Shown here piece by piece: positions 9,373 through 63,056 of a stretch of 64,000 nt of DNA. Both the position numbers and the translations under genes were made by a program. The notes under the pieces are model-generated. The model saw only the letters and a program-made list of their open reading frames with translations, was not told where the DNA came from and did not search any database. The DNA is taken from the NCBI GenBank assembly GCA_963749155.1, contig CAVVLO010000002.1, positions 1,248,001 through 1,312,000 on the forward strand, in the 5' to 3' direction. Every line of letters starts with the position of its first letter. The stretch's first letter is position 1. Source of the DNA: an uncultured Armatimonadia bacterium. Lineage in GTDB: Bacteria > Armatimonadota > Zipacnadia > CAVVLO01.

Positions 9373-9429
9373 AACGCCTAATCCGACCTGTTCTTGCAAA
9401 GAGGATAGGCGCAGGGAGTGTTAGTCCTT

Positions 9430-10815: not shown

Positions 10816-10825
10816 CCCCTCCTGT

Positions 10826-12661
10826 ATGAGAAAGTCACCGAGTTTCCTGGTTTTGTCAGGCCTGCTTCTCCTGGTGTTGCTTCTGGGCAACTCCCAGTTG
10901 GCTGTTGCCCAAATGCGCGCGTATGCCACTATCAACAAAGTCACCTGGACCCAGCTTGCCAATGCCGTTACCGTGCGTATCGAATCAGACGGCATCCTGG
11001 AGGCTGACCTTGACTGGGAAAATATTGGCAACCTGATTGAGTGGAACGAAGACGTGGGTGACTGGCAGCCTAAGGCCTCTCAATCACTTTCCTTGCAGGT
11101 GGCTAATGGCAAGATTGGGGTTCAGAACTTTGTGGACATAAGCACCTATCCTGTCAGCCATCTCGAATTCTCTCCAATGACTTACGCGGAGCAGGGAATC
11201 GGCTGCAGGGTGCGCCTTCTGTTCTACAAAGAAGCGGGCTTGCTTGAAGCCTTTGGCGATTTTGACATCCGACAGTGGTGGGTAGCCAACTATGTTCCCT
11301 TGCGAGTCGAGGCGCAACTAAGCCGCGACCAGCGCGCTCTGCTTATCACGGTCTATTCCGACAGGCAGATCAATCCTAAAGCCAAAGACGATGAAGCTGC
11401 CGCAATAAAGCAGCGAATTGAAACGGCAAAAAGCTTACTGGTAGTCAGCGAACACGACGGCCTTATCGATGCCGACCTGCTTAATGTGCCCCTGGCAGAT
11501 GTCGTCAGAGAACTCGGCAAGCTGGAAGCCTGCCCCAGGCTGGTACTCCCCGAGGATATCAATCCTTACGTCACACTTTATGCCAAAGATCAGCCCCCAC
11601 TTAGACTGCTTGAGGCTATCGGAAGTATGACCGGCCTGACCTTGTGGCGCACTGATGGTCAATACTCTTATGCCCGCTCCAACATCGAGACAGCCAGCGG
11701 CTATTATGGTTCAAGCGCCTGTACTATCCAGCTGGAAAATATAAAACTGGAACAAGCGCTCAATCTGATGCCTGATTTCCTGTTGCGCGACCTGCGCCCC
11801 TCAGCCGAGCATAACGCAATCAATATCGCCTGCAGCGCACCGATTACTTCTAAAGTCCGGCAAGATATCGAGCTACTCGATCAACCACCACGCCAGGTCG
11901 GCCTGGCTCTGATGCTAGTTCAGTTCGAGAGAGAGAAAAACGAGAAAGTTTCTTTCTCTGCCCGTTATCAGAACGGCAACGACCTGTTTTCCTTCGATTC
12001 TGATCTGGGTACCCTTCTCGGTTGGCTTGACTCACCCAATCCCTTCTTCAGTCCACTTGGCTCAGTAGGCGGTTATTGGGATTTGCTGGTGCGTGGTCTG
12101 AAGACCAACCGCAAGGCCGAACTGCGCTCCTCACCCTACCTGGTTACGTTGTGCGGGCAGGAGGCCAGCCTTTTTGTCGGTAAGACTCAATATGTAAAGC
12201 GCAGTAATCCTTACGATGGCTCGGAAGAAGTTGGTCCTGTCAAGCTCGGAGTCAATCTCAAATTTACTCCCATCGTAGGGCCGGAAGGTGTGGTAACTCT
12301 TAAAATCTGGGCTTCCGATTCGAGCATCATTGACCTTGATGCCCAGACCGGTCAGCCTACTCTGCGCTCGGCCGAATTCACGGGCACGGTCCGCGCCAAT
12401 TCTGGCGAAACGATCTATATCGGTGGCCTGGAATTACAGCGTCGCGAAAAAATCGAACAGAAGCTGCCTGTGCTTGGCGATCTGCCTCTGATTGGTAAAC
12501 TCTTTACCTCCACCAGCAAGTTGGAGGTCGACTCAGATTTTGGACTCTTCATTACGCCTTTCCTCTTGCCCGATTCGCAGGGCTTTCCAGCCCAGCAGCT
12601 CGGTCTGATGAATCGCGTTCAACTTATGATGGACTCTGAGACTAAGGAAGGTAAGCAATGA
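10826..12661 (+). CDS. Secretin family protein 2 (extra N-terminal AMIN-like region)
   Basis: Motif GETIYIGGL...KLPVLGDLPLIGKLF...FGLFITP; signal peptide. Confidence 0.88.
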   Translation: MRKSPSFLVLSGLLLLVLLLGNSQLAVAQMRAYATINKVTWTQLANAVTVRIESDGILEADLDWENIGNLIEWNEDVGDWQPKASQSLSLQVANGKIGVQNFVDISTYPVSHLEFSPMTYAEQGIGCRVRLLFYKEAGLLEAFGDFDIRQWWVANYVPLRVEAQLSRDQRALLITVYSDRQINPKAKDDEAAAIKQRIETAKSLLVVSEHDGLIDADLLNVPLADVVRELGKLEACPRLVLPEDINPYVTLYAKDQPPLRLLEAIGSMTGLTLWRTDGQYSYARSNIETASGYYGSSACTIQLENIKLEQALNLMPDFLLRDLRPSAEHNAINIACSAPITSKVRQDIELLDQPPRQVGLALMLVQFEREKNEKVSFSARYQNGNDLFSFDSDLGTLLGWLDSPNPFFSPLGSVGGYWDLLVRGLKTNRKAELRSSPYLVTLCGQEASLFVGKTQYVKRSNPYDGSEEVGPVKLGVNLKFTPIVGPEGVVTLKIWASDSSIIDLDAQTGQPTLRSAEFTGTVRANSGETIYIGGLELQRREKIEQKLPVLGDLPLIGKLFTSTSKLEVDSDFGLFITPFLLPDSQGFPAQQLGLMNRVQLMMDSETKEGKQ

Positions 12662-14382
12662 TACGACTTATTCTGGCTCTGACCCTGATAACTGTAATGC
12701 TTGCGCTGGTGTTGGTCCCTGCCTCTGCTGCGCCAGTCTATAGCAGCATCACCGAGATCACCTCAAGAGAGCTTTCTAATGGGGTGCAGATCACCATCAA
12801 GGCCGACGGGGTAATCGAGTGGCATGTCCCTCGCCGGTTTAACAGCACCACGCCTACCAGCAGGCTGGAGGTACACTTTCCCGCTTCGCTCAACAGCAGT
12901 GGGGAAAGCACCTTCTATATAAACAAATATCCTGTCAGCCTGGCCCAACTGCAGATTGCACCCGATGCCAAGGAAGGGGTGGGGGTCGAGTTATACATAA
13001 CAATGATAGAGCCCTCTACCTTCTCAGTTTCGCAAAGCGATGATATGACCAGTGTCGTCATCACCATCAATAGCGACCGCACCCTGGCAGCAGGCGCTGG
13101 CGGCAAAGGGGCAGGAGGCGAAGCCGAGAGCCAGCTTTTTGTTGAAGCCGATGATATGGGCCTCCTGACTGTGAACGCACAGAAGGCCAGCTTCCCCAAG
13201 CTTATTCGTATGGTCGGCGAAAAAACTGGCCTGGATATCGTGGTAAACGATGCCGCCTCCCTTGCCAACCTGACGCTCTCTATCAACCTTACTGGCGCCA
13301 AACCTGAAGAGGCCTTCCAGGCTATTGCTTCTGCCACTGGACTTGCGCTTTCCAAGCAGGGCGATGAGATACCCATCTATATGTTTAGCCAGGGCATCCC
13401 GGTTGATCTGGCTTCCTACCGGCTCTCTGCCACCGAGTCCTTCTCCATGGACCAGATCCTTGCCTCCGATGCTCCCAAGATGCTGCCCAACTTCCTGTTG
13501 CAGTATCTTCACGTGAACAATGCGCAGAATGCCGTCGTTGTTACTGCGCCTGATCAGATGCTTGAAAAGATTGGCGCTGACCTGGACAAAGTGGATATTG
13601 GCCCGCCGGTCATTATGGTTGAGGCTCTGGTCGTGGAGTTCAAGGACACCGAAGACAAAGATAGTTTTATGTCGATGGTCTACCGCAGTGGTGAGCGTCA
13701 ATTTATCACCAGACCTGACCAGGGGCTCTCCTATTACACCGACATTGGCTCTTTGCCAAGCAACTTCCAGGCCTCTCTTAAGGCACTGGAAAACAGCAGT
13801 ACTGCTCGAGTCGTGGCCAACCCGAGGATGTCCTGCCTCAACGGCCGGTATGCCACTGTCTTCATAGGGAAGATCCGCTTCATCAACGTAGAGTTCCTTT
13901 CTTATGGCACGCTGGTCAAGTTGATTCAAGGTGTCAACGTCGGCGTCAGCTTGACTATCGCTCCCTGGACGGGCGGTAATGGCGAGATCACAACCCTTAT
14001 CGTGCCTCAGGTCAGCAACATCGCCGAGTTGGACCGAGAATCCGGCCTGCCTACCCTTAGCACCCGGCAAGTATCGACTACAGTGCGCGTGAAGGATGGC
14101 CAGACGATAATTATCGGTGGCCTGAAGCAGACTCAGGTTTTCGAGCGCGAATCCAAACTCCCGATTCTGGGCGACCTGCCGCTCATTGGCGATCTGTTCA
14201 CGCGCAAAAGCAAGAACAGCGTAGACTCCGAGCTTGTAATCTTCATCACGCCCCATATCCTCAATCCGGAAACTTGCCAGCTCGAAGGCGATGAGCGCGA
14301 GCAGCGCTGGCGCGAAGAATTCCTGGGCGCCGAGGGAGTCAGTTGTGAGGTTCCACTGCCTTCTCTGACTTCTCCCAACTAG
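12658..14382 (+). CDS. Secretin family protein 3 (extra N-terminal AMIN-like region)
   Basis: Motif VRVKDGQTIIIGGL...KLPILGDLPLIGDLF...ELVIFITP; ATGA overlap with the previous gene. Confidence 0.9.
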   Translation: MIRLILALTLITVMLALVLVPASAAPVYSSITEITSRELSNGVQITIKADGVIEWHVPRRFNSTTPTSRLEVHFPASLNSSGESTFYINKYPVSLAQLQIAPDAKEGVGVELYITMIEPSTFSVSQSDDMTSVVITINSDRTLAAGAGGKGAGGEAESQLFVEADDMGLLTVNAQKASFPKLIRMVGEKTGLDIVVNDAASLANLTLSINLTGAKPEEAFQAIASATGLALSKQGDEIPIYMFSQGIPVDLASYRLSATESFSMDQILASDAPKMLPNFLLQYLHVNNAQNAVVVTAPDQMLEKIGADLDKVDIGPPVIMVEALVVEFKDTEDKDSFMSMVYRSGERQFITRPDQGLSYYTDIGSLPSNFQASLKALENSSTARVVANPRMSCLNGRYATVFIGKIRFINVEFLSYGTLVKLIQGVNVGVSLTIAPWTGGNGEITTLIVPQVSNIAELDRESGLPTLSTRQVSTTVRVKDGQTIIIGGLKQTQVFERESKLPILGDLPLIGDLFTRKSKNSVDSELVIFITPHILNPETCQLEGDEREQRWREEFLGAEGVSCEVPLPSLTSPN

Positions 14383-15875: not shown

Positions 15876-17141
15876 CTACTTAAGATCGGTCAAATCTAGC
15901 GGCCTGTGTTCTTCTTGCAGTTTTGCTTCAGCGACTAGTCGCAGCCTGCCCGCATAACTTTGCCATTCGCCGTCGGTATCCAGGCGGATCAGCCAGGCCA
16001 GCAATCTAAGCGTGCGTTCAGGCTCCTCTTGCTTGCAGGCAAGTTCTGCCGCCCGGAGCAGTGCCTGTAAAGCCATCGAATCACTCGGCCAGAGCGCAAC
16101 AAACAGCTCAAATACGCGGCTTGCGACCTTGTCATGCTCGATTGCGTCCAGCTTCCGCGCCTGCTTCAGCACCGTCATCGAATCCAGGCGACTTGCGCTG
16201 GCCTGGGCGATAAGCCCTTCCACAAGCCCTGAGGCTTCTTCATCGCGTCCAGCAAGCGCAAGCCCTTCGACTGCGGCCAGCTTGTAGGGGGCTGCATCCT
16301 CCGCCTGGTGGGTCTGCTCCATTGCATCGGCGACCATCAGGTTGGCGTCAGGATTGGTCGGCGCCCAGCGTAGCAACGATTTGCCTGCCGCTTTGACCCC
16401 ATGCCAGTTGCCATTTTCGGCGTATTCACGAGCCTGGTCGAAATAATTCTCTTCCAGCGCCGAGGTATTCATCTTCAAGCCGAAAGAAGCTGCCATACCG
16501 AAAGCGAATCCGCCGATATGCGCCCAATAGGCGACGTCCGCAATAGAGGTATGTAGTTCGGTTTCCGCCATCCCCCACATATAGGCCAGCAGCAATTGGA
16601 GAGCAAACCAAAGCCCCAGCACTAGCCAGCCAGTTACAGGATAGACCTGACAGATTATGCGGTATCGGTACATCCAGCCCCAGACGACGAAGACGAACAC
16701 ATTGACCGGTACGAAGTAATACCGCACCGCGAAAAGGCCAAGTATGCCCGCGATGGCCCCGGAGGAACCAACACCCCCTCTTGCCGCCTCGCCCTGGGTA
16801 ATCCAGTGCTCATAGCCGAACTGCGCTCCGATTGCTACCAGCCCAGCGCACAGGTACAACACCAAAAAATTGAAGGGCCCCAGATCGTCCTCGACATGCG
16901 GTCCGAACACCCACAGGAAAAGCATATTCCCAACCAGATGGAAGAGCCCCGCATGGGTAAACATATGGGTCAGTACCTGGCCCCAGGCGAAGTTGTCAGG
17001 CTGGAAGGCCAGCTTGTCCAGTGCCTCTTCATATCCCAGCACCAGGCACAGGATATAGACGATGCCATTGGCTCCGATCAGGCAGTAGGTCGCCCAGGGG
17101 AAATACTGCCCCTTGCGCCAGGTGCCAATCGGTATAATCAT
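15876..17141 (-). CDS. Rhomboid intramembrane serine protease with C-terminal TPR-like domain
   Basis: Motifs HAGLFHLVGNMLFLWVFG, GSSG and AYWAHIGGF; soluble helical tail. Confidence 0.9.
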   Translation of the reverse strand: MIIPIGTWRKGQYFPWATYCLIGANGIVYILCLVLGYEEALDKLAFQPDNFAWGQVLTHMFTHAGLFHLVGNMLFLWVFGPHVEDDLGPFNFLVLYLCAGLVAIGAQFGYEHWITQGEAARGGVGSSGAIAGILGLFAVRYYFVPVNVFVFVVWGWMYRYRIICQVYPVTGWLVLGLWFALQLLLAYMWGMAETELHTSIADVAYWAHIGGFAFGMAASFGLKMNTSALEENYFDQAREYAENGNWHGVKAAGKSLLRWAPTNPDANLMVADAMEQTHQAEDAAPYKLAAVEGLALAGRDEEASGLVEGLIAQASASRLDSMTVLKQARKLDAIEHDKVASRVFELFVALWPSDSMALQALLRAAELACKQEEPERTLRLLAWLIRLDTDGEWQSYAGRLRLVAEAKLQEEHRPLDLTDLK

Positions 17142-17156
17142 TGGGTTGTCACCCTC

Positions 17157-17861
17157 CTACTGGACGCGAGTATATCTGAAGGGCCGGCCCCGTTTTGACC
17201 CTTTGACCGAGCGCGCTATCAGCCAGCCGCAACCAAAGCCCGCCACGTGAGCCAGCCAGGCCACTCCTGCTCCCTCAATTGTGCCCATCCCCCAAAGCGA
17301 TTGGAGGAGCTGCAAAACGAACCAGTATCCAAGGTACACCGTCGCCGGTAGTTCCAGGATGAAAGGCCAGAAGAACAGGAAGAAGACGGTTAGTATGCGC
17401 GCGTAGGGGAAGAACACCAGATAAGCGCCAAGCACCCCTGCTATCGCTCCGCTTGCGCCTACAATCGGTGTCGTTGTATCTCCAGCGAGCGCTCCAAAGG
17501 CGCTTTGCGCAAGCGCGCCTGCCACCCCGCAGCCAAGGTAGAAGACCAAAAATCTGGGCTTGCCGAGAGAGTCCTCGACATTATCGCCGAACACCCAGAG
17601 AAACCACATATTGCCGATAAGGTGCAGCCAGCCCCCATGCACGAACATATGTGTGATGAGCGGCGCCAGCCCCCACAAATCCACCAGGGAGTGACTTGTG
17701 AACACATCGGCAGGCACAAGTCCCCATCGGCGAGCGAAGGCCTCGAGGATTGGCAGGGGCATCGCTGCCTCGGATAAAAATACGACTGCCGAGGTCAGTA
17801 TCAATGCGAAGACGACAAGAGGTTTCTTGCGAGAGGGCACATCGTCGCTTATTGGGAACAC
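17157..17861 (-). CDS. Rhomboid intramembrane serine protease
   Basis: Motifs HGGWLHLIGNMWFLWVFGDNVED, GASG and AWLAHVAGF. Confidence 0.93.
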   Translation of the reverse strand: MFPISDDVPSRKKPLVVFALILTSAVVFLSEAAMPLPILEAFARRWGLVPADVFTSHSLVDLWGLAPLITHMFVHGGWLHLIGNMWFLWVFGDNVEDSLGKPRFLVFYLGCGVAGALAQSAFGALAGDTTTPIVGASGAIAGVLGAYLVFFPYARILTVFFLFFWPFILELPATVYLGYWFVLQLLQSLWGMGTIEGAGVAWLAHVAGFGCGWLIARSVKGSKRGRPFRYTRVQ

Positions 17862-19593: not shown

Positions 19594-22500
19594 CTAATCC
19601 TCTTCCTGGCCGGCAAAGGCCGTGAGATCGTAATACCTCGACGGCACGTAGATATGATCTTCGCCAATGGCCGCGGACTGCTGGATGCCATAGGCGGTAT
19701 CAAAAAGGGTGACCTGTTCTCCATCCTCCAGTTTGAAGGCGTAGAAAGAGCCATTCATCGCGCCCACATAGGCCCAGCCTTCGGAGAGGGCTGGCGAGGC
19801 CAGTATCTCATCGCCTACTTCCTGGCTCCAGAGGGTCTCACCAGTCCCGGCGTCAAGCGCCATAACTTCGCCCTTGCCTGTTGCCACCAGCAACTGGCCT
19901 GCTGTGTAACAGGGAGAAGCCCTGAGCGCTGAGCCCAGTTGCCTTTCCCATATAACTTCGCCACTTCCCGAAGCCAGACAGTACAGCCCTCCATCATCCG
20001 AGCCTGTATAAATCAGGTCGTCTACCACAGCTGCTGCACTGTATATTTCCGAGCCTGCCCGGAAACGCCAGCGCAACTCGCCTGTCTCGAGAGCGATCGC
20101 ATAAAGATGCTGATCCCAGGAGCCGATATAACAGGTATCACCCTGCAGGACAGGCTGAGCCAGCAGGCGACTGCCTGCCGAGAACTGCCAGGTTGGCTCT
20201 CCTGTAGCGAGGTTGATACAGTGCAGCGTGCCCTGCCAGTCGGGAAGCAACAAGCGACCGGAATGCGCAAGCAAGGGAGCGCGCAGCTCGCGCTTGAGAT
20301 CCAGCACGCGCTTCGAATCTCCGTCGTTTACCTCGAAACGGAAGACTTCGCCTTCCTGGCTTGCGAAATAATAATACCCTTCAGAGTACGTGCCGGTGGC
20401 AGCCAGGGTTTGGCCAGCTTTGGCTTCCCAAACCTTGGCGCCAGTCTGGGCATCGCATGCCAGTACCTGTCCACTGGCGCAACCGATAACTACAAGGCCC
20501 TCTGCCACTAGTGGATCGGTGATGACCATTGCTGGCGCGTTGAAGATCCAGCTCTGCTCAAGAGGCGCTGTTAGCTTTGATGGCAGCGCGCCATGCCCAC
20601 GCGGTCCACCCCGGGAAGCAACCCAGAAGGTCTCCTGCAGCAGTTCTTCAGTTTCCGGTGGGGTAAGCGCAAGCTGATACGAAAGCCGGAACTCCTCAAG
20701 CTGTTCGAGTGTGGGCAACACTCTGAGCGCCGCCTGCAGATGTTCGCGCGCTGCCGTATATTGTTTTTGGTCTACCCGCAGCAGGCCCAGCACAAGCTGG
20801 ATTGCGCCCTCTGACTTGGTGTCTTTTGCTTTTTGAAGCGCCTCAATCAACTTGTGACGCGCGCTGGCTCTGGCCATTCTTATCGCCAGAGCGAGTTGCT
20901 CAGAGGCGCTTGCCTTTTGCAATTCCTGTACCAGTTGGTCGGCAGCTTTTTCGCCGAGGATCCGTTCGTAGGCTCGCAGCAACTTGCGATGAGTAGGCTC
21001 GAGCTCGGTGCGCTTGAGAGCTTTGATAATATCAGTTGCCGCAGTTTTATCTTGCAGCCTGGCCAGCGCGTCTGCCGCCCGAGCTACCGTCTCTTCGTCG
21101 GTCTCCTCGAGCAACTTGTGTAACTGGGGCAACTGCTCCTTAAGTGAAGCTAACACTTCCTCTTCACTTGGCCCGCCGCGCTCCGTCAGCTCTGAGAGCA
21201 AGAGTCTTAGTGTCCGTGGAGATTTCGACTCCTTGAGGGCTCCGGCCAGACGCACCCGAGTTGCTTCCGATGCCTTGGGAAGCATCTCTTCCAAAATTGC
21301 CCCGCCTCTGTCTCCTAGTTCCAGCGCCTTTTGCGCCCAATAACGCACCGCGACGCCTGTTGTCATTGAGCTGCGCACCAGCAGTTCAAGCTGATCTGGC
21401 TCAAACTCCAGCTCGCGCCGATGCCTGTGGATAACCGCGACAGAGTCTGCAGACATCAGGCTGTTGTAACGCTGCCAGTCTCGCTCTGACCGCACCAACA
21501 AGTCACGCAACTGCTTGGCGAGGATCTCTTCAGGTGACAGAGACTTGTAGATATCATCTACAATCCGTTCATGGGTCAACTCGTAGCGGCGTTCCTGCGG
21601 ATTGCCTACCCGGCGCACCAGCCCGGCATCGTGCAGATGAAGCAGCACGCGTTCCATCTGGTCTGCTTTGGCTCTCGCTTCCAGTTGCAGGCGCTCGAAG
21701 GTAATGCCAATGGTGGTGTTGAAGCTGCCAGCAAGCGCCTTCAACACTGCGATCCCGAGTCGCCGTTCATTGCCTTTCAGCTTCTTTAACGACTCGTCCA
21801 GATATTGCCCAACAATACGTTCGGCGCCTCCGAGCTTCTGGTACATCGCCCGGGTCGCCAGTTCTTGTTTGTTTTCAAGTTCTTGAAAAAGTTTTCCGCA
21901 GACAATTTGCAGTTTGGGCGGATCGACACCCTCGCCAGACACATCTACGATTATCTGTTCTACCAGGTCTGCTTCAAAACCGATGCCAAAACGTCCCGCC
22001 GGCTTCGTAATCGCTGACCTGGCCCCATCAAAACTGAGGAAAGGCAGCCTGTAGATATGCTCGAACACTTGGGGCAGATGGTTGCGCGCCTCGTCCAGCC
22101 GGGCCATAAAACGCTCTCGGAACATAAGCACTAGCGTGATATTGGCTTCTTCAGCCTTAACTAGCTGCTCGAACTCCGCATTCAGCCAGTCACGCGAGGC
22201 CGGCCCCAGCCTTAACATCACATGTTCATACTGGTCGAAAAACACTATGCAGCGTTTATCCACCTGTTTGGCAGCCGCCAGCACCATCTCGGCGATGGAT
22301 TCGGACGGCTCGGGTTCGAAGCCCAAATCTTCCCGGATTGCGCGCGCAAAAGCCTCCAGCAGATTTTCCTCATATCTGACATAGAGATAGGGCTGTTCGT
22401 CCTCGATGAACTTCGGCAACAGGCCGGCTTTCACGAAACTGGTCTTGCCCGCTCCGCCACGGCCGATAAGCAGCCAAAGGCGCTTCTCCTCATCGGCGAG

Positions 22501-23529
22501 GAAATCGCGGAATTCTCTAAGCTCATTGTCTCGCCCGTAATAAAGCTCCCGGTCAGCCAGCTCGAAGCTGTGCAGAAACTTGTAAGGCCCCTCAGGCAGG
22601 ATTTTTAAGTCCTTTTTCCTGGGGCTGGCGAAGGTCGCCCTGGTCGAATAGCGCACCAGCCGGTTATACAGCGCATTGGCAAAAGCCTGGAAGGTGCCAC
22701 TCTCTCGGCAAAGCAACCGCCCAGAGCTGTTGCGAGTTTTAAGCAGGCTGACTACCTGGGGAAGATAAGCGTGAAATTCAAGTGCCGCTGGCTGTTCGAT
22801 CTTCAACCGTTCGAAGTGCTTCGCGTCGATAATCGGCACTTTGCGGTTGACCCACCACAGGCGCTCCCCATGCGCGCTTATGGCTGACACAACCGGCATA
22901 TCTCGTGCAGTAATAGACACCAACAAGGTGTTGTGGCGAGACAGGCGATGAAGGGTAGAACGCACCTGGGCCACATTGTGCTCGATAGTGCGAGTGGTCA
23001 CTGGCAATAACTGGTTGGCGAGATCGCCGCCCATCTTGATAAGAGTAACTTTTTCCGACTCGGAAAGAGCCTTGACGATTTCGCTGCGGGGGTGATGTCC
23101 GACCACAAAGAGGTTGTAAGCCTCACCAGGTAACAACCGTTCGGCTTTCAGTGCCTCTTCCAGCTTGTCAGTAGGATCAAAAGTGAAAACCAGAGCACAG
23201 TAGCCACGCGTGATTATCCTGGCAAGTTTGGCATATCCTTCGGCCATACCTTCGTCTTTTATGGCTTCCTGGGCCAGTTCGAAACCGCGCTTCTGTGGTT
23301 CTGGTGAGGAGTCGATGGCGGCCTCCAGTTGGGGCCAGAACTCCTCTTCGGCAAGCTCTGCCGCTTCTGGATGCTCGCTACGCCACCACTCGGCCAGGTG
23401 AGAGCGCAAGTTCATTGCCAGACTCGGTCGTTCTTCCGTCGCCGAGATTCCGCTTCCCAGTATGAGTACGAAGGCATCGCGCACGCCTTGATACTCGGCC
23501 ATCAGTTCCCCGATTTCCTGGATTACCAT
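19594..23529 (-). CDS. STAND (nSTAND1-like) ATPase with N-terminal degenerate SIR2-like domain, HEAT/TPR-like helices and C-terminal PQQ-type beta-propeller
   Basis: PYKFLHSFELADRELYYGR; Walker A GRGGAGKTS; Walker B IVFFDQYE; winged-helix YELTHE; repeated DAxTGxxxW blades. The N-terminus has VLILGSGIS/LIKMGGD/LWWVN. ATG 23529 follows GAGGA. Confidence 0.8.
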   Translation of the reverse strand: MVIQEIGELMAEYQGVRDAFVLILGSGISATEERPSLAMNLRSHLAEWWRSEHPEAAELAEEEFWPQLEAAIDSSPEPQKRGFELAQEAIKDEGMAEGYAKLARIITRGYCALVFTFDPTDKLEEALKAERLLPGEAYNLFVVGHHPRSEIVKALSESEKVTLIKMGGDLANQLLPVTTRTIEHNVAQVRSTLHRLSRHNTLLVSITARDMPVVSAISAHGERLWWVNRKVPIIDAKHFERLKIEQPAALEFHAYLPQVVSLLKTRNSSGRLLCRESGTFQAFANALYNRLVRYSTRATFASPRKKDLKILPEGPYKFLHSFELADRELYYGRDNELREFRDFLADEEKRLWLLIGRGGAGKTSFVKAGLLPKFIEDEQPYLYVRYEENLLEAFARAIREDLGFEPEPSESIAEMVLAAAKQVDKRCIVFFDQYEHVMLRLGPASRDWLNAEFEQLVKAEEANITLVLMFRERFMARLDEARNHLPQVFEHIYRLPFLSFDGARSAITKPAGRFGIGFEADLVEQIIVDVSGEGVDPPKLQIVCGKLFQELENKQELATRAMYQKLGGAERIVGQYLDESLKKLKGNERRLGIAVLKALAGSFNTTIGITFERLQLEARAKADQMERVLLHLHDAGLVRRVGNPQERRYELTHERIVDDIYKSLSPEEILAKQLRDLLVRSERDWQRYNSLMSADSVAVIHRHRRELEFEPDQLELLVRSSMTTGVAVRYWAQKALELGDRGGAILEEMLPKASEATRVRLAGALKESKSPRTLRLLLSELTERGGPSEEEVLASLKEQLPQLHKLLEETDEETVARAADALARLQDKTAATDIIKALKRTELEPTHRKLLRAYERILGEKAADQLVQELQKASASEQLALAIRMARASARHKLIEALQKAKDTKSEGAIQLVLGLLRVDQKQYTAAREHLQAALRVLPTLEQLEEFRLSYQLALTPPETEELLQETFWVASRGGPRGHGALPSKLTAPLEQSWIFNAPAMVITDPLVAEGLVVIGCASGQVLACDAQTGAKVWEAKAGQTLAATGTYSEGYYYFASQEGEVFRFEVNDGDSKRVLDLKRELRAPLLAHSGRLLLPDWQGTLHCINLATGEPTWQFSAGSRLLAQPVLQGDTCYIGSWDQHLYAIALETGELRWRFRAGSEIYSAAAVVDDLIYTGSDDGGLYCLASGSGEVIWERQLGSALRASPCYTAGQLLVATGKGEVMALDAGTGETLWSQEVGDEILASPALSEGWAYVGAMNGSFYAFKLEDGEQVTLFDTAYGIQQSAAIGEDHIYVPSRYYDLTAFAGQEED

Positions 23530-23624
23530 CGTCCTCGGGCTTCGCCCCTGCCCCCATCTAACCTCTGGCAATATCGCTCGTGAAAGCTTTTCCCAGCGAG
23601 CTTGGTACTGCGACTATATACTAG

Positions 23625-51690: not shown

Positions 51691-52663
51691 GGTCACCCTA
51701 CGCCTTGCCCTTATCTCCAGTTGCTCAGCAGTATGGCACTGATCTTGCTCCTCCTGGCAGGGACCTGCCTCGTCGCGCACGGCGACAGGACTGGCCTTGC
51801 CAGGAAACTGCTTGCCACGAAGGACGCTCTGCGGTGGGATGGGCCACAACAGGGCCTCTTCGGAGACATCTACAAGGTTGAGGAACCCGGTAGTGGGCGC
51901 AAGGCCCTGATCGAGCTTGAACCCGGTAGTGGCGAGCTGCGGGAGTTTACGTTACTAGGCAACCCGCCTACTCTGAAGGGACCCGCCCTAAGTGAGGAGG
52001 CGCTAGTTCCGGGAGGCAAGAACCCGCGCGGAGGAACTCCTGCCTGAGTCATACGGGATCGCTGGGCTGGTTGCCTCGACAAGTCAGCCGAAGCATCTGG
52101 GGCCGGTCACCTCTGTAACCCTGAGAGGGATGCAGGGAGACATACCTGTGCCCCCTCGGGTAGCCATACTGCTCTCCAATGATGGCAAGATTCTGACGAA
52201 GGTGCTGATCTCGGAATCTCCGATCTCTAGCCTGCGTGTAGGGGACGTGAAGTTCTCGGCTGAGAAGGCCGCCGAGTTAGCAATCGGTGAGGCGGTGCGC
52301 AGGGTGGCCGCTCTGACAACCTTCAGTGAGAATCGAGTGCAAGAACTTGCTGGGTACGCGCCCGAGGGACTTCCGAGCCTGTACTACTCTAACGATACGC
52401 TAGGCAAAGTCAACGGGCTGCCTACTCCGGGCGCTTTCTACAACGTGAAGGTGATCCGCACTAGACCTGCTTCTACCAGTGAGAGTGACAGGTTGCTTGA
52501 CCATCTTTATGTGACAGTCGATGCGAACACGGGCCAGTTCGGTGCTCCACCTGGGATCGCCGGATCCTCGACTCCGGCAGAGAGTAGCCGTTCAGGTGGC
52601 TCGCAACCCCTTGTCGCTTACATCCTCGCCGCCCATGGTCAGTGGTCACATCGCCGTCCATAA
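51685..52663 (+). CDS. Surface-protein cassette 1 (PepSY-like; frameshift near 52008; C-terminal anchor truncated)
   Basis: Signal peptide; shares PPR(V/I), YAP...YSN...PTP and VxVDxxTG with cassette 2. Ends AYILAA, then runs into the next leader. Confidence 0.7.
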
Positions 52664-52686
52664 TTTGGAGGTGCCGTGCCGTGAAA
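52641..52686 (+). repeat. Cassette leader repeat, copy 2 (3' half only)
   Basis: 46 bp identical to 53808-53853. Confidence 0.92.
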
Positions 52687-53616
52687 CTCTGTGTACTGTT
52701 TGCCCTCCTTGTAATGGGAACCGTTTTGCTCCCGACTGTTACGTTGGCCGAAGACCCTCGTGATGCCGCAGCTTCGGTATTGCTCGGTGGTGATCTTGCA
52801 GGCCTGGAGTGGGATTCGGATAGACTGGTGACCGAACATGGGACTGCAGTAGCTCGGTTGGAACTCGGGCACGGATATATTGTAAAGTCCTTCTCTCTCC
52901 TGCGAGATCTGCCGCCGTGTGGAAAAGTCCTCGACGACAAGGCTTTCGAGGCGAAAGGCAGGGCTCTGCTGAAGCAACTCGTCCCTGCGAGCTGGGATGT
53001 CGACGGCCTAGACTGTCAGCTAGGCGATCGACCCATCAGGGGAACAAGACTCCTCTATTTCCGCGGGGCAAGAGACGACGTGGTACTGCCCCCTCGCATC
53101 CTGATGCACCTGACGCCGGACGGGCGAGTCGTGCGCCACCTTGGGATACCCGAGCAACCGCTACCTGACTCGGCTCTTCTCCCCCCCCAAATCGACATCG
53201 AGCAGGCAAAGAAGCTAGCGCTAGCCACCGCAGTGCAGAAGCTCAGCAAGCAGACTGGCAAGTCGAAGTGGCAGGTGATGTGGCGAGCACGTTACGCCCC
53301 GAGTGCAGAAGCGCCGAAACTCCGATACTCGAACCAGCCAGAGGGCTACAACCTGAAATTCCCAACCCCTTGCCCCATCTGGTACGTGCGCATCGAGCGT
53401 ACCAAACCCGCCGCTAATGGTAGAGATGGCTTGCCAGATTATCAGGGTGTTATGGTAGACGGCAATACCGGGGCCACAATGACACCACCCGACGTTGTAG
53501 GAGGCTCACTAACGACCGGCAAGATGGCCGCGGGTGCGCCTTCTGCCGCCTATGCCCTCGCCGCCCTGGCAGCCCTGCTGCTCATCTTCCTCGTCGTGAA
53601 GCTGAGGAAGAGGTAG
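52681..53616 (+). CDS. Surface-protein cassette 2 (signal peptide, PepSY-like domain, C-terminal TM anchor)
   Basis: GTG after GGAGG; IDIEQAKKLA...VMVDGNTG; tail AYALAALAALLLIFLVVKLRKR. Confidence 0.8.
   Translation: MKLCVLFALLVMGTVLLPTVTLAEDPRDAAASVLLGGDLAGLEWDSDRLVTEHGTAVARLELGHGYIVKSFSLLRDLPPCGKVLDDKAFEAKGRALLKQLVPASWDVDGLDCQLGDRPIRGTRLLYFRGARDDVVLPPRILMHLTPDGRVVRHLGIPEQPLPDSALLPPQIDIEQAKKLALATAVQKLSKQTGKSKWQVMWRARYAPSAEAPKLRYSNQPEGYNLKFPTPCPIWYVRIERTKPAANGRDGLPDYQGVMVDGNTGATMTPPDVVGGSLTTGKMAAGAPSAAYALAALAALLLIFLVVKLRKR
53546..53615 (+). repeat. Conserved anchor-coding repeat, copy in cassette 2
   Basis: 68/70 nt identical to 54761-54830. Confidence 0.93.
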
Positions 53617-55575: not shown

Positions 55576-55630
55576 AAGTCGTCCCTCCCGCAGTTATAAT
55601 AACAGGCAGCGCGCCCAAGTGGAGGCCGAT

Positions 55631-58180
55631 ATGAGAAACCGGACCAACTCTTGTTTGCTTGTTCTTCTCTTCGTCAGTTTGTGGGTCTCAGGCCTGGGAT
55701 TCGGGCAGCCGAAACCCTCCGGTCTGGCGGACCTGGACACCATCCGGGCCGAAGTGGCTGCCTCGCCCACCACCGAGGCCAACGCGAAACAGCGGTTGGC
55801 TCTGCTGTATTCCTGGTATCGCCTGTTGCAGAACCAGGGCTACGATATCGCGAGCTTCGAGCCGCTCTCCCAACAGTTGCGAGGCGGTCCAGTGCCCGCG
55901 GTCGTGGACGAAGGCTATCGCGCGCTGGAGGCAGTGCAGGCCGGCGATCCACTTGTGGCGGTACAAGGTTTTACTTCCACCCCTGCTGAAGCTCTCCTCG
56001 ATTGGCCGAGTTACCATGGCGATCTCGGCCAGACAGGCTCCACGAAGGAAGCAGGTCCGACCGAAGGCGCGCTGGCCTGGCGTTTCTCCCTCGGGTGGGC
56101 CTGGTACGGCCGTCCAACGATCGAAGCAGGGAAGGTCTACATCGCTTCGCCAGGCCGCACCACCGCGCTCTACTGCCTGGATGAAGCCACGGGCGAGTTG
56201 AGATGGAAGGCCCGCCAGTGGGGTATCAGCGGTTGGGATCCCCCGCCAGCCGACTCTCCAGTGACAATACTGGCGGATGAAGTAATGGTGCGCGCGACCG
56301 CCTCGCAGGGCGAAGTCGCTCAACTCGTCTTCGTAGATAAAGCCACCGGCGCGGTTAAACGCCGCGTCTCACCCGGCCCGACAGAACCGCGCTGGGAGCC
56401 GGCTGCTGAACCGACCGGCGACGACTTCCTCACGTATCTGACCGACGACTCGACCACGGTCACGGTGAAGCTCGCCAAGAGCGGCCGCACCTGGTGGCGG
56501 TTCCGCGTCGGGCGAGCAATCGGCGAACCTCTCCTTGTGGGCGACCGCGTCTATGTCGGCACCACCGAGGGCAAGCTTTGGGCGTTGAACTTGACCACCC
56601 CGAGCCGTGTCGCCTGGGTCTACGAAGCCGGCGCGCCCCTGGCGGGAACCCCGGCGCTCAGCGGTGACCGCATGCTGATCGGCGCCAACGACGGTTCTGT
56701 CCACTGTGTGGAAGCCTCGACCGGCCAGCGCCTCTGGCGCTCTGAGGTGGCCAAGCCCGAGCACCGCGCTCAGCAGCTCTTCTCCAGCCCCACAATCACC
56801 GGCGATCGGGTGTACCTGGCTGCGGCGGACAGCCAGCTTTATTGTCTCGATCTCGCAACTGGCATCGTGCGGTGGCGCTTCCCCCTGGGTGATTGGGGTC
56901 GCGCGCGCCCTCTGGTGCTGGGTGATATCGTCTACACAGCAGCACTTGATGGCACAGTGACCGCGATCCGAGACGCTGGAGACTACCCCGAACTGCTGTG
57001 GACTCGCACCTTGGACAGGACAAAGCTCCTGGCTGATCTGACTGGAAGTGAGCGCGGCTTACTGATCGCAACCTCTGATCTTTATCTCTACTCGCTGTCG
57101 CCTGCGACAGGGGAAATCCAGTGGCGTCGCAGTCTGCTGGAATCCATCGAAGTGGACGGGGACCGTGTGCTGGCCGATGCTGCGCCGGAGATCTTCCAGT
57201 CCTCGCCCACTGTCGTTGACGGACTCGTCTGCATCGGTGGCCCAAGCGGCTTCGTCCACTGCGTGAGAGCTGCAACCGGAGAGGAAGTCTGGCGTTTTGA
57301 GACCGGCGGCAAGGTCTCAGCGACCCCAACAGTTGGCGCCGGACGTGTCTATGTGGGCCAATTCGGCGGAGATGAAGACTTCTACTGCCTCGACGCCGCG
57401 ACCGGAGAACCCCTCTGGACGCGACCGGTGGGCTGGGTCTGGACAGCCGCGGGCTTCGATGAGGGGCGACTCTACGTGGGCACGACCGAGGGCGACTTCC
57501 TCTGTCTCGAAGCCGCAACGGGACGTGAGTTATGGCGCTATACGACCGGCGGGGGCATCTACCCTTCGCCTGCCTTCGATGAGGAGCGCGTCTATACGGG
57601 CTCCTGGGATGGTCTTTATTATGCTTTTAACAAGCGCACAGGAAAGCTAGAGTGGACTTACTCCCGTCCGGGCTTGCCCTACCACATTGGGGGAAGGCCA
57701 GACTCCGCCTGTCCCGTTATCGCGGGCGACTTGCTGCTGGTGCAAACCCAAGGGGCGTTGCTGGTGGCTCTCGAGGCGGCAACAGGGCGAGAGCGCTGGC
57801 AGTGGGCGGTGCCTGAGTGGAGGCTCCAAAACGGCACTCCGGCGTATTCCGGGGGGGTTGTTTATGCCTCCTGCTTCACAGATGCCTATACGTGCCCTGG
57901 TGGCGCGCAGCTCTTCGCGCTGGAGGCCTCCACCGGAAAGCAGCTCTGGGCGTATCCTGACGGGGGAGGTATCACCGCTCCTTCGGTTGCGGGAGAGCGC
58001 CTCTACTTTGCCTCGACAGGAAGCGCCTGGTTTACCTGTCTCAATACAAAAGAGCCTGCCCAGCCAAGTCTGGTTTGGCGTTACAAGCTAGGCGGGCCAG
58101 TAATGGAATCCACGCCAGCGCTATATGGGAGACTGGTTTTCATCGCAGATTCGGCCGGTTGGCTGTGGGCTTTGCGCTGA
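55631..58180 (+). CDS. Secreted PQQ-binding-like (BamB-like) multi-beta-propeller protein
   Basis: Signal peptide; many LYCLDxATGxxxW blades. Confidence 0.85.
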   Translation: MRNRTNSCLLVLLFVSLWVSGLGFGQPKPSGLADLDTIRAEVAASPTTEANAKQRLALLYSWYRLLQNQGYDIASFEPLSQQLRGGPVPAVVDEGYRALEAVQAGDPLVAVQGFTSTPAEALLDWPSYHGDLGQTGSTKEAGPTEGALAWRFSLGWAWYGRPTIEAGKVYIASPGRTTALYCLDEATGELRWKARQWGISGWDPPPADSPVTILADEVMVRATASQGEVAQLVFVDKATGAVKRRVSPGPTEPRWEPAAEPTGDDFLTYLTDDSTTVTVKLAKSGRTWWRFRVGRAIGEPLLVGDRVYVGTTEGKLWALNLTTPSRVAWVYEAGAPLAGTPALSGDRMLIGANDGSVHCVEASTGQRLWRSEVAKPEHRAQQLFSSPTITGDRVYLAAADSQLYCLDLATGIVRWRFPLGDWGRARPLVLGDIVYTAALDGTVTAIRDAGDYPELLWTRTLDRTKLLADLTGSERGLLIATSDLYLYSLSPATGEIQWRRSLLESIEVDGDRVLADAAPEIFQSSPTVVDGLVCIGGPSGFVHCVRAATGEEVWRFETGGKVSATPTVGAGRVYVGQFGGDEDFYCLDAATGEPLWTRPVGWVWTAAGFDEGRLYVGTTEGDFLCLEAATGRELWRYTTGGGIYPSPAFDEERVYTGSWDGLYYAFNKRTGKLEWTYSRPGLPYHIGGRPDSACPVIAGDLLLVQTQGALLVALEAATGRERWQWAVPEWRLQNGTPAYSGGVVYASCFTDAYTCPGGAQLFALEASTGKQLWAYPDGGGITAPSVAGERLYFASTGSAWFTCLNTKEPAQPSLVWRYKLGGPVMESTPALYGRLVFIADSAGWLWALR

Positions 58181-58704: not shown

Positions 58705-58790
58705 AGGTATAGAACAGGCGGCCTGATTCGACAGGCGCGGCTGGGCTCGTAAAATCGAGCAACGGGTTTATGATCCCGTGGGACTCTCAA
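58705..58790 (+). ncRNA. NiCo (czcD) metal-sensing riboswitch
   Basis: Pattern GAACAGGC-[hairpin]-GCGGCTGGGC-[hairpin]-GCAAC-[hairpin]-GTGGGAC matches the NiCo four-way junction as recalled. It sits upstream of a CDF exporter and overlaps a terminator. Confidence 0.85.
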
Positions 58791-58806
58791 GTCTCACGGG
58801 TTTTTT
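58775..58806 (+). terminator. Riboswitch expression-platform terminator
   Basis: CCCGTGGGAC-TCTCAA-GTCTCACGGG-TTTTTT, mutually exclusive with the aptamer 3' end. Confidence 0.85.
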
Positions 58807-58820
58807 ATTGCGAGGTTTTT

Positions 58821-59768
58821 ATGGGCGAAGAGACCCTCAAGCGCAAGACAGGTGTAGCAAGACTGTCAGTGGTATCCAATACACTTTTGGTCTGCTTCAA
58901 ACTGGTTGTGGGATTGCTGACAGGCTCGGTGTCCATTCTTTCCGAAGCCTTGCATTCCGCTGTAGACCTGATTGCCGCGGCGATTGCGCTCTTCGCGGTG
59001 AAGAAAGCTGGCGAGCCCGAGGATGAGCATCACAGGTTCGGCCACGGCAAGTTCGAGAATATTTCCGGCTTTATCGAAGCCTTGCTCATCTTCGTTGCTG
59101 CGCTCTGGATAATCTATGAAGCTATCAGTAAATTGTTACACCCAGAGGCCCTGCAGGCTATTGGCTGGGGCGTAACGGTGATGGTTATCAGCGCCCTTGC
59201 CAACACGCTCGTTTCCAGTATGTTGTTCAAGGTAGCCAAAGAAACCGATTCCATCGCCCTGCAGGCAGATGGCTGGCATCTGCGCACTGATGTTTGGACC
59301 TCTGCGGGCGTCGCCGTGGGTCTTGGTGTAATGATGATTGGTGAGAAGTTTGCACCACCAACTACCAATCTGCACTGGATTGACCCGGTTGCAGCGCTTG
59401 TTGTGGCAATACTCATCCTCAAAGCAGCCTGGGAGCTAACCCATCAGTCACTAAAAGACCTCCTGGACACAAGCCTTGATGAAGAGGAGGTCGGCTGGCT
59501 AGAGGAGTATCTTCGCCAGTTGCCTGATGGCGCTTGTGGCTATCACCACCTGCGGACGCGCAAGGCAGGGCCAGTCCGGTTTATCGAACTCCATCTGCTG
59601 GTCGAGCCCGAGATGACCGTCGAAACAAGTCACGAGCTGGCCGACGAATTGGTTGCCGCTATCAAGCAACAATTCGAGGGAGCCAGAGTGTTGATCCACG
59701 TCGAACCTTGCGAAGCAGCGAAGAAAGCTTCCAGGGCAGGTAATAAGGCTGCCGATGGAGAAGACTAA
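58821..59768 (+). CDS. Cation diffusion facilitator family metal exporter
   Basis: Motifs SEALHSAVD, HRFGHGKFE, ADGWHLRTD and C-terminal IHVEP. Confidence 0.95.
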   Translation: MGEETLKRKTGVARLSVVSNTLLVCFKLVVGLLTGSVSILSEALHSAVDLIAAAIALFAVKKAGEPEDEHHRFGHGKFENISGFIEALLIFVAALWIIYEAISKLLHPEALQAIGWGVTVMVISALANTLVSSMLFKVAKETDSIALQADGWHLRTDVWTSAGVAVGLGVMMIGEKFAPPTTNLHWIDPVAALVVAILILKAAWELTHQSLKDLLDTSLDEEEVGWLEEYLRQLPDGACGYHHLRTRKAGPVRFIELHLLVEPEMTVETSHELADELVAAIKQQFEGARVLIHVEPCEAAKKASRAGNKAADGED

Positions 59769-60719: not shown

Positions 60720-61175
60720 TCAGGCTGAAGGTTCTTCTAGCTGGGAGGTGCAATGCGGGCAACGCGTTGCCGCCAGCGGGATAGTAGTTGCGCAGTAAGG
60801 GCAAGGCTTCTCGTTTACTTCAGGTACCTTGGGTTCGGCTTCCTTCAGCTTGCGCAGCCGGTTGATGCTCCTGACCAGCAGGAAAACAGCGAAGGCTACG
60901 ATGAGGAAGCCGATGATATTGTTGATGAAGACGCCATAATTGAGGGTCGCTGCCCCAGCTTCTTTAGCCGCGGCAAGACTTGCATAATCGCTGCCTGACA
61001 TGTTCAGATACAGGTTGGTAAAGTCTACCTTGCCCAGCAGCAAGCCGAGGGGAGGCATAATTATGTCCTCGACCAACGAGGTGACTAGCTTGCCAAAGGC
61101 CGCCCCGATGATAATGCCTACAGCCATATCAACCATATTGCCTTTGACCGCGAATTCCTTGAACTCTTTAAGCAT
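60720..61175 (-). CDS. mscL: Large-conductance mechanosensitive channel with C-terminal zinc ribbon
   Basis: [27 protein letters not shown]; tail CPYC...CPHC. Confidence 0.96.
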
Positions 61176-61784: not shown

Positions 61785-61831
61785 AGCGCATCACCAGTAG
61801 TCAGCCTATCACGCTTCTACTGGTAAGGAAA

Positions 61832-61861
61832 AGAGGCGCCCCAATGGATGAGGCGCCTCTT
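61832..61861 (-). terminator. Terminator after the DUF1559 gene
   Basis: AAGAGGCGCC...GGCGCCTCTT followed by T-rich sequence on the minus strand. Confidence 0.65.
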
Positions 61862-61880: not shown

Positions 61881-62543
61881 CTACCAGCCGTATCCGGAGG
61901 GTACACTCCTGTCGGGGTTATGCATCCCAGGTAAAGGCAGGGCGACTGTCGGCTCCCACTTCAACCATTTGGCATGGCCATCAGCGAAAGCATAATTGGA
62001 ACCTTCGCTGTGCCTTGCTTTGGCGATATGGTCTACGAGCCAGTTGTGCCCATCGCCTGCCACATAACTGTCCAGGTTGTCCCAGTTCCAGCTCGAGAGA
62101 CCAGGCCAGGGATGATATCCATCATACGGCATATTCTGTTCGCGTTCGGCAATCATTATTGTGTCCGCGGCGTTTCTGAAAGTGGCTAGTGGCATCCCGT
62201 GAGCAAACAGACCATTGATTACATAATCTGTGTTTGGGTTTCCCCCAGTCTCGCCCGAGAGTGAAGGACACTGGAAGATCTGGGCATTCTTCACGTAGGG
62301 CTGTAGTGGCGTATACCACCGGTAAGTTGCGGTACAGGAGACGAAACACTCATCATAATCCTGGATATACATCATCATACCCAGGCCAATCTGCTTCACG
62401 TTGCTGAGGCAGGCAGACTGCCTGGCTTTCTCCTTCGCTCTGGCGAACACGGGGAAAAGGATTGCCGCCAGGATGGCGATAATGGCAATAACAACAAGCA
62501 ACTCTATCAGCGTGAAACCACGCCGACGCGCAAAGGTATTCAT
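61881..62543 (-). CDS. DUF1559 prepilin-type N-terminal cleavage/methylation protein with H-X9-DG motif
   Basis: [42 protein letters not shown] and [17 protein letters not shown]. Confidence 0.93.
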
Positions 62544-62598
62544 AAGCTGGACCTCCAAAATCAAGCTTGAGATGACAGAAAAGAGCTGGATGTCTCTC

Positions 62599-62907
62599 TC
62601 AGGCTGAAGGAGGCGCTCTGGTAAGGGGCTGCCAGCGCTCGGTCAAGGAAGGCGGGCAGCAAGGGGGTAAATAAGCTGCAAGTATAGAAGCGGGTGGGGT
62701 AGGCGCAGGTGTAGAACTGGCGATAACCTGGGCCGAGGAGACCGCCGAGATAAGCTCGCAGGCGGCGCACTGATGCTTTTCGGCTGACTTATGCTCCTGG
62801 TGGTTGTGGATGGGGAAGCTTGACAGCGCAATCAGGCAGGCAAGTATTAGCGAGAGGACAAGTCCTCCCGTTTTCAGCCCGCTAATTGGCTGCTTCAAGC
62901 TCTCCAA
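62599..62907 (-). CDS. DUF2946-like leader peptide (TM, His-rich, CxxC, C-terminal RAPP)
   Basis: Hydrophobic segment, HNHQEH, HQCAAC, Pro-rich linker and TRAPPSA-stop. Confidence 0.75.
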
Positions 62908-63056
62908 GTCGTAATTTCCCTCGGCTTTGGTTGATTGATTATACCCAGCAAAGGAGCCAAAGGTTCCCTGCCCAGGCTAGCGGCAGGAGAAGCCTCTCTT
63001 TGGCGAATACCTAGCCGGCCCCATCTGTAATCCAATAGCCAGGAGGAAGCCAGTAA

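Follow-up and report, generated by a model that had tools for sequence, protein, structure and literature searches.

A CruR/CutF-like candidate leader peptide upstream of a prepilin-type DUF1559 gene in an apparently Armatimonadota-like genome

Organization of the locus

The 64,000-nucleotide (nt) stretch of contig CAVVLO010000002.1 analysed here (positions 1,248,001 to 1,312,000; hereafter the window) carries on its minus strand a small open reading frame (ORF) of 102 codons (62599..62907, TTG start and TGA stop) with the architecture of the DUF2946-like leaders of the CruR/CutF class. Exactly 55 nt separate its stop codon from the ATG at 62543 (spacer 62598..62544) of a gene with a prepilin-type start, which encodes a DUF1559/H-X9-DG protein of 220 amino acids (aa) (61881..62543, same strand) and is proposed here to be the regulated target of the leader. 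A preliminary description of this DNA had reported the 102-aa ORF with its transmembrane segment, histidine cluster, CAAC motif and RAPP close to the stop, as well as the 55-nt gap, and this description, coordinates included, proved correct on re-examination.

The leader begins with two lysines (K5 and K12) placed ahead of 18 hydrophobic residues (codons 14-31, 62815..62868), judged by inspection to be an export signal, either a signal anchor or a signal peptide. Residues 3-31 also give a weak Pfam match to the single-helix membrane protein PsbX (E 0.05), which agrees with the membrane-helix character of the segment and with nothing further. Next comes a putative metal-binding sensor (codons 34-50, 62758..62808) made of His34, His36, His39, His45 and C47-A-A-C50. 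The middle of the protein is rich in proline and alanine, and a second cysteine pair (C83-C84) lies within a putative arrest segment (codons 82-100, 62608..62664) that ends in R97-A-P-P100 (62619..62608). Only Ser101 and Ala102 separate this motif from the TGA, so that the stop is the third codon past RAPP. That motifs of this type stall ribosomes, as the preliminary description had stated, is experimentally established (PMC10951233, PMC12992588), and the role proposed here for RAPP follows the mechanism described in the first of these papers.

Upstream of the TTG, and likewise on the minus strand, a likely Shine-Dalgarno sequence (GAGGG, 62918..62922) is found at a distance of 10 nt, and a perfect TATAAT hexamer, 30 nt 5' of the leader start, is a candidate -10 box (62938..62943) with no convincing -35 partner. 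A promoter and terminator scan of the minus strand returned nothing useful, the TATAAT going unreported since no -35 was matched, and no Rfam family was matched at E<=1 between 61700 and 63100.

Several features set this frame apart from others in the window. RAPP occurs eight times in the six-frame translation (127,996 residues), and the copy in the leader ORF is alone in having a C-x2-C 40-50 residues ahead of it. Among the 1225 stop-to-stop frames of at least 30 aa, three have R[AG]P[PG] in their last 12 residues, the leader being one of them and the other two (52824-53168 and 56410-56667) lying inside ORFs 52642-53616 and 55619-58180. The GC content at third codon positions (GC3) is 0.62 in the leader frame, compared with a mean of 0.68 +/- 0.06 for the genes of the window and 0.57 for the other two frames at the locus. 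The leader has an ESM recognition score of 3443; 9 of 100 shuffled proteins reach 2300.

The product of the downstream gene matches the N_methyl profile PF07963 (38.1 bits, cut-off 21.2), the DUF1559 profile PF07596 (35 bits, cut-off 23.3, over profile positions 2-82 of 268 only) and the H-X9-DG profile TIGR04294 (27.1 bits, cut-off 19). It thus combines an N-terminal cleavage/methylation motif, a DUF1559 region and a C-terminal H-X9-DG element, as is typical of prepilin-type DUF1559/H-X9-DG proteins, and can be described as a four-cysteine, pilin-like protein. Its own Shine-Dalgarno sequence, a GGAGG at 62552..62556, stands 8 nt 5' of the ATG. Directly 3' of its stop codon, still on the minus strand, lies a terminator-like site (61825..61861) consisting of a 13-bp GC-rich hairpin followed by UUUUCCUU (-24.6 kcal/mol), which the consensus terminator scan had missed. 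This hairpin with its U-tract, beyond which a GNAT gene is found, suggests that leader and DUF1559 gene form a self-contained two-gene transcript.

Homologues of the DUF1559 protein are abundant: 7898 of the 8000 candidate proteins that were scored reach E<=1e-20. Among those with a named source, the closest derive from metagenome-assembled genomes (MAGs) of Armatimonadota, with Armatimonadota, Armatimonadetes or Armatimonadia names in 11 of the 120 rows listed, which points to the likely phylum of the window. The closest orthologues (P0004-P0040) share 60-99% identity with the DUF1559 protein. A tblastn search of plasmids with the same protein gave nothing at E<=1e-8. An AlphaFold2 model built from 61 sequences (predicted local distance difference test score 94.2, predicted template-modelling score 0.87) has a long helix (residues 12-62) and a small beta head. 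Comparison of this model with the PDB by Foldseek gave type IV pilins as the best matches, all at E >= 0.2 with template-modelling (TM) scores of at most 0.33 and mostly over the helix only, so the head domain appears to be without a close solved relative. Nor did this comparison point to any known metal-binding fold. Conserved histidines and aspartates (H115, H144, H178, D188, H190 and H208, among others) would be compatible with a metal site, and we regard them as a lead only.

Conservation of the leader and its relationship to the CruR/CutF class

A single real homologue of the leader emerged from protein searches (P0001). It has the same length of 102 aa and is 75% identical, with the hydrophobic segment, all four histidines, both cysteines of the CxxC, the C83-C84 pair and RAPP retained. 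The distribution of the differences is uneven, as residues 61-81 diverge and the 19 residues that follow (82-100, ending in RAPP) are 100% identical. Such a pattern is that which would be expected of a sensor coupled to an arrest segment in contact with the ribosomal tunnel. The contig encoding P0001 is 1204 nt long, and no DUF1559 homologue match could be tied to it.

Other matches were set aside. Two long proteins (P0002, 1665 aa, 15 stretches; P0003, 1048 aa) were dismissed as low-complexity matches to the Pro/Ala-rich middle of the leader, and a locus in a Spartobacteria MAG (L001) was considered spurious, with 16 matched residues in a frame that holds no comparable ORF and has no DUF1559 neighbour.

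The DUF2946/CruR class has been defined by a CXXC and a RAPP with 45 +/- 1-2 residues between them, RAPP standing three residues from the end of the protein, an export signal in more than 95% of members and first place in an operon (PMC9426467). The leader has both motifs, with 46 residues between them (51-96) and RAPP two residues from its end, an N-terminal hydrophobic segment (by inspection) and first place in a two-gene unit. It also passes all four of the filters used to collect CutF-like proteins (fewer than 150 aa, PP within the last 15 residues, an N-terminal signal and a same-strand neighbour within less than 1000 nt; PMC9973294), having 102 aa, P99-P100, a signal recognised by inspection only and the 55-nt spacer. 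In the ESM Atlas, its top neighbour has a score of 0.95 and shares 184 of 256 features, and the DUF2946 family (PF11162) is carried by four of the 30 nearest clusters overall and by 11 of the 30 nearest named clusters. The homologue P0001 aligns with PF11162 at 10.7 bits (E 0.92; gathering score of the family 23.7 bits) through residues 35-100, corresponding to profile positions 52-117 of 117, and the register of this alignment is correct, with RAPP falling at the end of the profile.

Four of the 30 named neighbour clusters belong to DUF2607 (PF10795), a small uncharacterised family of about 99 aa from Pseudomonadota. Proteins of this family may have a leader-like architecture too.

The Sec-monitoring arrest peptides SecM, ApdA and ApdP (PMC10951233, PMC7897499) control secA, secDF or yidC and, unlike the leader, have no Cys/His sensor cluster. 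The gene downstream of the leader encodes an N_methyl/DUF1559/H-X9-DG protein and no Sec or YidC component, and because the target is no translocase the leader is not a monitoring substrate of the Sec/YidC kind, to which MifM and VemP also belong.

A predicted hairpin covers the Shine-Dalgarno sequence of the DUF1559 gene

Both minimum free energy and ensemble structures predict a stem-loop on the minus strand (62551..62614, -21.5 kcal/mol) that masks the Shine-Dalgarno sequence of the DUF1559 gene. The 5' arm of its stem starts within the leader, where GCCUCC corresponds to the third base of Ala98, the Pro99 codon (CCU) and the first two bases of Pro100, and the stem runs on through Ser101, Ala102, the stop codon and beyond. 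The 3' arm ends in GGAGGU, which includes the Shine-Dalgarno sequence. The pairing probability of this sequence (0.99-1.0) is the highest among the 12 genes of the window that have a perfect GGAGG.

We modelled the effect of a stalled ribosome by masking its footprint, the 3' edge of which was assumed to lie 15 nt past the P site. The pairing probabilities of the first three Shine-Dalgarno bases then drop from at least 0.99 to 0.12, 0.13 and 0.52, respectively. We estimate that the Shine-Dalgarno sequence lies some 42 nt past the footprint edge, which would leave room for a 30S subunit.

Leaders of this kind recur upstream of DUF1559 genes

The EMBO J 2025 study that catalogued the genes found downstream of RAPP small ORFs in 52,895 GTDB representative genomes (Fig. 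4B source data, PMC12992588) gives "DUF1559 domain-containing protein" as one of 30 enriched downstream groups, with 112 RAPP cases against 68 AAPP controls (6.46-fold, adjusted p 1.05e-31). The other enriched groups include TonB receptors, PCu(A)C, CopC, SCO and multicopper oxidases. The pairing of such a leader with a DUF1559 gene is therefore conserved, and the published pairs have the same leader architecture as the one in the window.

We counted by eye the features of 57 of the RAPP-DUF1559 rows in these source data. A CxxC precedes the C-terminal RAPP in 47 of them, the other ten having a single cysteine, a CxxxxC, histidines only or an unrelated protein (a DUF1573 protein; a RAPP at residue 21). 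Fifty-three of the 57 are annotated "hypothetical protein", three DUF2946 and one DUF1573 domain-containing protein, so that the leader resembles these published RAPP-DUF1559 leaders, 54 of which carry no DUF2946 annotation. Spacings between CxxC and RAPP, counted by hand in five rows, are 43, 45, 43, 43 and 43 residues, and several rows have short DUF1559 genes (612-790 nt) comparable to the one in the window (663 nt). No sequence-level homologue of the leader was found in the part of the list that was searched. The organisms that we recognised among these rows are, presumably, Planctomycetota.

In about five of the 57 leaders, the CxxC is replaced by a single cysteine after a His-rich patch (for example DHxC-x-x-T) or by a CxxxxC, and these five or so tend to precede short DUF1559 genes (681-786 nt). 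These may represent a second sensor subtype.

The association is genuine and occurs repeatedly, and it has already been published without being interpreted. This weakens any claim to novelty for the pairing in itself: the leader class has been known since 2022 and its association with DUF1559 was tabulated in 2025, so the window provides an instance and a hypothesis, not a new system. The main text of PMC12992588 mentions neither DUF1559 nor pilins nor type II secretion, and none of these leaders is among those tested. A full-text search for DUF1559 yielded four papers, none of which, judged by title and abstract, deals with arrest peptides. The text supplements of PMC9426467 and PMC9973294 do not contain DUF1559, N_methyl, prepilin or a planctomycete phylum name, which is uninformative, as their large tables are perhaps not covered.

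Proposed mechanism

Taken together, the motifs with their spacing and their conservation in the homologue, the hairpin prediction and the repeated occurrence of the pairing lead us to favour, with moderate confidence, a leader that acts in cis as a regulator of the CruR/CutF (DUF2946-like) class, in which ribosome stalling would unmask the Shine-Dalgarno sequence of the DUF1559 gene. In the series of events that we infer, the N-terminal hydrophobic segment would bring the translating ribosome to the membrane, and the His-rich C-x-x-C cluster, 46 residues before the arrest site, would sense a transition metal (copper being the precedent) or the redox or export state. The ribosome of the host would then pause, its P-site tRNA carrying Arg97-Ala98-Pro99 and its A site occupied by Pro100-tRNA. 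Since the Pro99-Pro100 codons (CCU CCU) are themselves the anti-Shine-Dalgarno sequence, a ribosome stalled there would sit on it and hold the 62614..62551 hairpin open, so that a second ribosome could initiate at the DUF1559 gene, 55 nt further on. The hairpin would re-form once a ribosome had read on to the stop two codons later. The response could run in either of the two known directions, a metal making the stall last longer (CutF) or releasing it (CruR).

Precedents for this model come from both CruR and CutF. CruR (Bp2923 of Bordetella pertussis, the prototype of DUF2946) has a CXXC-RAPP spacing of 45 residues as against 46 here, with RAPP three residues from the end rather than two. It stalls in vitro with the two proline codons in the P and A sites, and regulation by it requires RAPP (PMC9426467, PMC12992588). 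In this proteobacterium the leader is followed after 162 nt by a gene for a TonB-dependent transporter and acts through Rho (PMC9426467), whereas in the apparently Armatimonadota-like host of the window the spacer is 55 nt long, contains a predicted hairpin that masks the Shine-Dalgarno sequence and leads to a pilin-like DUF1559 target. For CutF of Rhodobacter capsulatus, it has been shown experimentally that the stall melts a stem-loop hiding the downstream Shine-Dalgarno sequence (PMC9973294; bioRxiv 10.1101/2025.02.05.636593). CutF and the leader have in common an export signal, a cysteine motif, a proline-rich C-terminal stall site, a short spacer and a stem-loop over the Shine-Dalgarno sequence. 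They differ in that CutF uses a CxxxC and an EF-P-dependent PPP to control the multicopper oxidase CutO, whereas the leader has a CxxC and RAPP (reported to be EF-P-resistant), an anti-Shine-Dalgarno sequence inside the stall codons and a DUF1559 target. In short, the leader looks like CruR (CXXC, RAPP and spacing) and, in the model proposed, would work like CutF.

A number of observations weigh against this interpretation. With regard to the family, the leader gives no match to PF11162 in Pfam even at E<=10 and none in NCBIfam, whereas CruR passes the Pfam DUF2946 model. Because this profile fails and the motifs of the class are present, we call the leader DUF2946-like by architecture and not a profile-level member. 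The earlier comparison of the ORF with DUF2946 leaders is supported by its CruR-class motifs, their spacing and its ESM neighbours, and not by the profile search. Conservation of the leader, furthermore, depends on two sequences: a word-indexed search of a 5.8-billion-protein index gave 12 candidates and one match (P0001), an exhaustive phmmer search of 1.84 billion representatives gave three matches of which only P0001 is real, and no leader homologue was found when contigs of one genome per species were scanned with the two-sequence alignment. With regard to the hairpin, statistical support is weak and not exceptional, 14 of 200 shuffles folding as well over 68 nt (z -1.58) and 31 of 200 over 161 nt (z -1.09). 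Other GGAGG sites of the window are also paired, at 0.77-0.92, and the last two Shine-Dalgarno bases are still paired (0.87 and 0.98) in the footprint-masked fold. Nor is CCU at Pro99 strong evidence of selection, because this codon is common among proline codons here (25.5%), although the pair CCU-CCU accounts for only one of 31 Pro-Pro dicodons. RAPP arrest can be species-specific (PMC10951233), which bears on the ribosomes of the host lineage, and the DUF1559 protein has no known link to metals. Finally, the spacer of 55 nt is shorter than all those of the first 20 published RAPP-DUF1559 pairs (69-434 nt; PMC12992588), and the longer-spacer pairs may for this reason work differently.

Alternative explanations

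The last of these points is also relevant to a different mechanism for a leader of the same class. As in CruR, which is the prototype with CXXC and RAPP and works through Rho, the stalled lead ribosome would block Rho, its release would lead, ahead of or inside the DUF1559 gene, to polarity or a premature end of transcription, and the hairpin would be incidental. Most of the published RAPP-DUF1559 pairs (judging from the same first 20 rows) resemble CruR in having long spacers. In the window, the spacer is largely taken up by the hairpin, with the Shine-Dalgarno sequence as its 3' arm, which leaves little naked RNA for Rho loading, and the topology of the hairpin fits CutF. We consider a purely Rho-based mechanism unlikely. 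The two mechanisms may coexist, and a Rho-dependent component alongside unmasking of the Shine-Dalgarno sequence is possible, if less likely with a short structured spacer.

Comparably unlikely, in our assessment, is a leader that monitors export, membrane insertion or periplasmic disulfide formation instead of metal, the stall being released by the pulling force of translocation or folding, so that the Sec/SRP-dependent pilin-like protein would be tuned to envelope conditions. Monitoring of Sec/YidC is the classical task of RAPP arrest peptides that carry an N-terminal localisation signal, genes of the DsbA family and with thioredoxin domains are also enriched downstream of RAPP small ORFs, stalling of CutF has been tied to failed disulfide formation in a 2025 preprint (bioRxiv 10.1101/2025.02.05.636593), and the second cysteine pair of the leader (C83-C84) is conserved. 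The DUF1559 gene, however, encodes no Sec, YidC or Dsb component, the cluster of four histidines and a CxxC at a spacing of 46 residues is the signature of the metal-linked DUF2946 class, and DUF2946 clusters are the nearest named neighbours of the leader in the ESM Atlas.

A small membrane protein working in its own right, perhaps as a partner that binds metal or provides an anchor for the pilin-like protein, seems a quite improbable product of the ORF; RAPP would in that case be non-regulatory and the gene merely co-transcribed with its neighbour. The modest hairpin statistics and the conservation of the protein along most of its length would suit such a role. Bacterial proteomes, however, avoid few tetrapeptides as strongly as RAPP, and the copies that do occur are concentrated at the C-termini of small exported proteins; the exact conservation of 19 residues up to RAPP and the family-typical spacing also argue for regulation. 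CruR and CutF themselves act in cis alone, and neither protein can be detected in vivo.

That the ORF is an untranslated chance frame in a 5' untranslated region, as its TTG start, its 10-nt Shine-Dalgarno spacing and the absence of an entry for the window's own ORF from searches that returned P0001 might suggest, is very improbable indeed given the equal-length homologue with motif-wise conservation, the single occurrence of the combined motif in six frames, the ESM score and a GC3 that comes nearer to that of the genes than the GC3 of the other frames does.

Other genes in the window

Three consecutive secretin genes are present on the plus strand (9418-14382; PF00263, E 6e-38, 5e-31 and 1e-38), and the ORFs scanned included no recognisable gene for a pilin, an ATPase or a platform protein next to them. 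The preliminary description had suggested that the DUF1559 protein might act through secretins such as these. We rejected this link: the secretins are about 48 kb away, nothing connects them to the DUF1559 locus, and the window has no prepilin-type gene other than the DUF1559 gene.

About 2 kb from the leader locus, on the opposite strand, is a gene for a CDF-family cation efflux protein (58770-59768, plus strand, with Cation_efflux and ZT_dimer domains). This is the only recognisable metal transporter near the leader, and there is no evidence linking the two. Between them lies a gene for an MscL homologue (60720-61175, minus strand; PF01741, E 2e-42) with a C-terminal CxxC...CxxC extension that gives weak zinc-ribbon matches (UPF0547, E 3e-5), a zinc-ribbon-like tail being unusual for a mechanosensitive channel. 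Elsewhere in the window, two adjoining rhomboid-domain genes (15876-17861, minus strand) are followed by genes for a TPR protein and a CAAX-protease-like protein, and next to them is the gene for a protein of 1325 aa (19594-23571) in which a STAND NTPase is joined to a PQQ beta-propeller.

Significance for DUF1559 proteins

DUF1559 proteins form the largest paralogue family in model planctomycetes, with 68 copies in Planctopirus limnophila of which two are essential, and no function has been assigned to the family (PMC10632474). By their association with the other enriched RAPP targets, we hypothesise a link between DUF1559 proteins and metals, and we put forward, as a tentative and on balance doubtful proposal, that some DUF1559/H-X9-DG proteins of Planctomycetota, Armatimonadota and their relatives constitute a metal-responsive envelope module, the metal probably being copper, under the control of CxxC...RAPP leaders.

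To the published pairs, the window adds a divergent leader of the CruR/CutF type in an apparently Armatimonadota-like genome. It also adds a minimal design, with a 55-nt spacer and an anti-Shine-Dalgarno sequence inside the Pro-Pro codons, which would be convenient for dissecting the mechanism. If the proposed mechanism is correct, the switch would be unusually compact, since the two stall codons would also be the anti-Shine-Dalgarno sequence of the target gene. These DUF1559 proteins would then be under post-transcriptional control of the sort that Proteobacteria exert on TonB-dependent copper receptors, PCu(A)C, CopC and multicopper oxidases. The position of some members of the family behind metal-linked leaders of the stalling type, which in other organisms control copper receptors and chaperones, gives a testable handle on DUF1559 function. 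If true, a metal-responsive DUF1559 module would be the first functional handle on these proteins, and it would connect metal acquisition or defence with pilin-like fibres or pseudopili.

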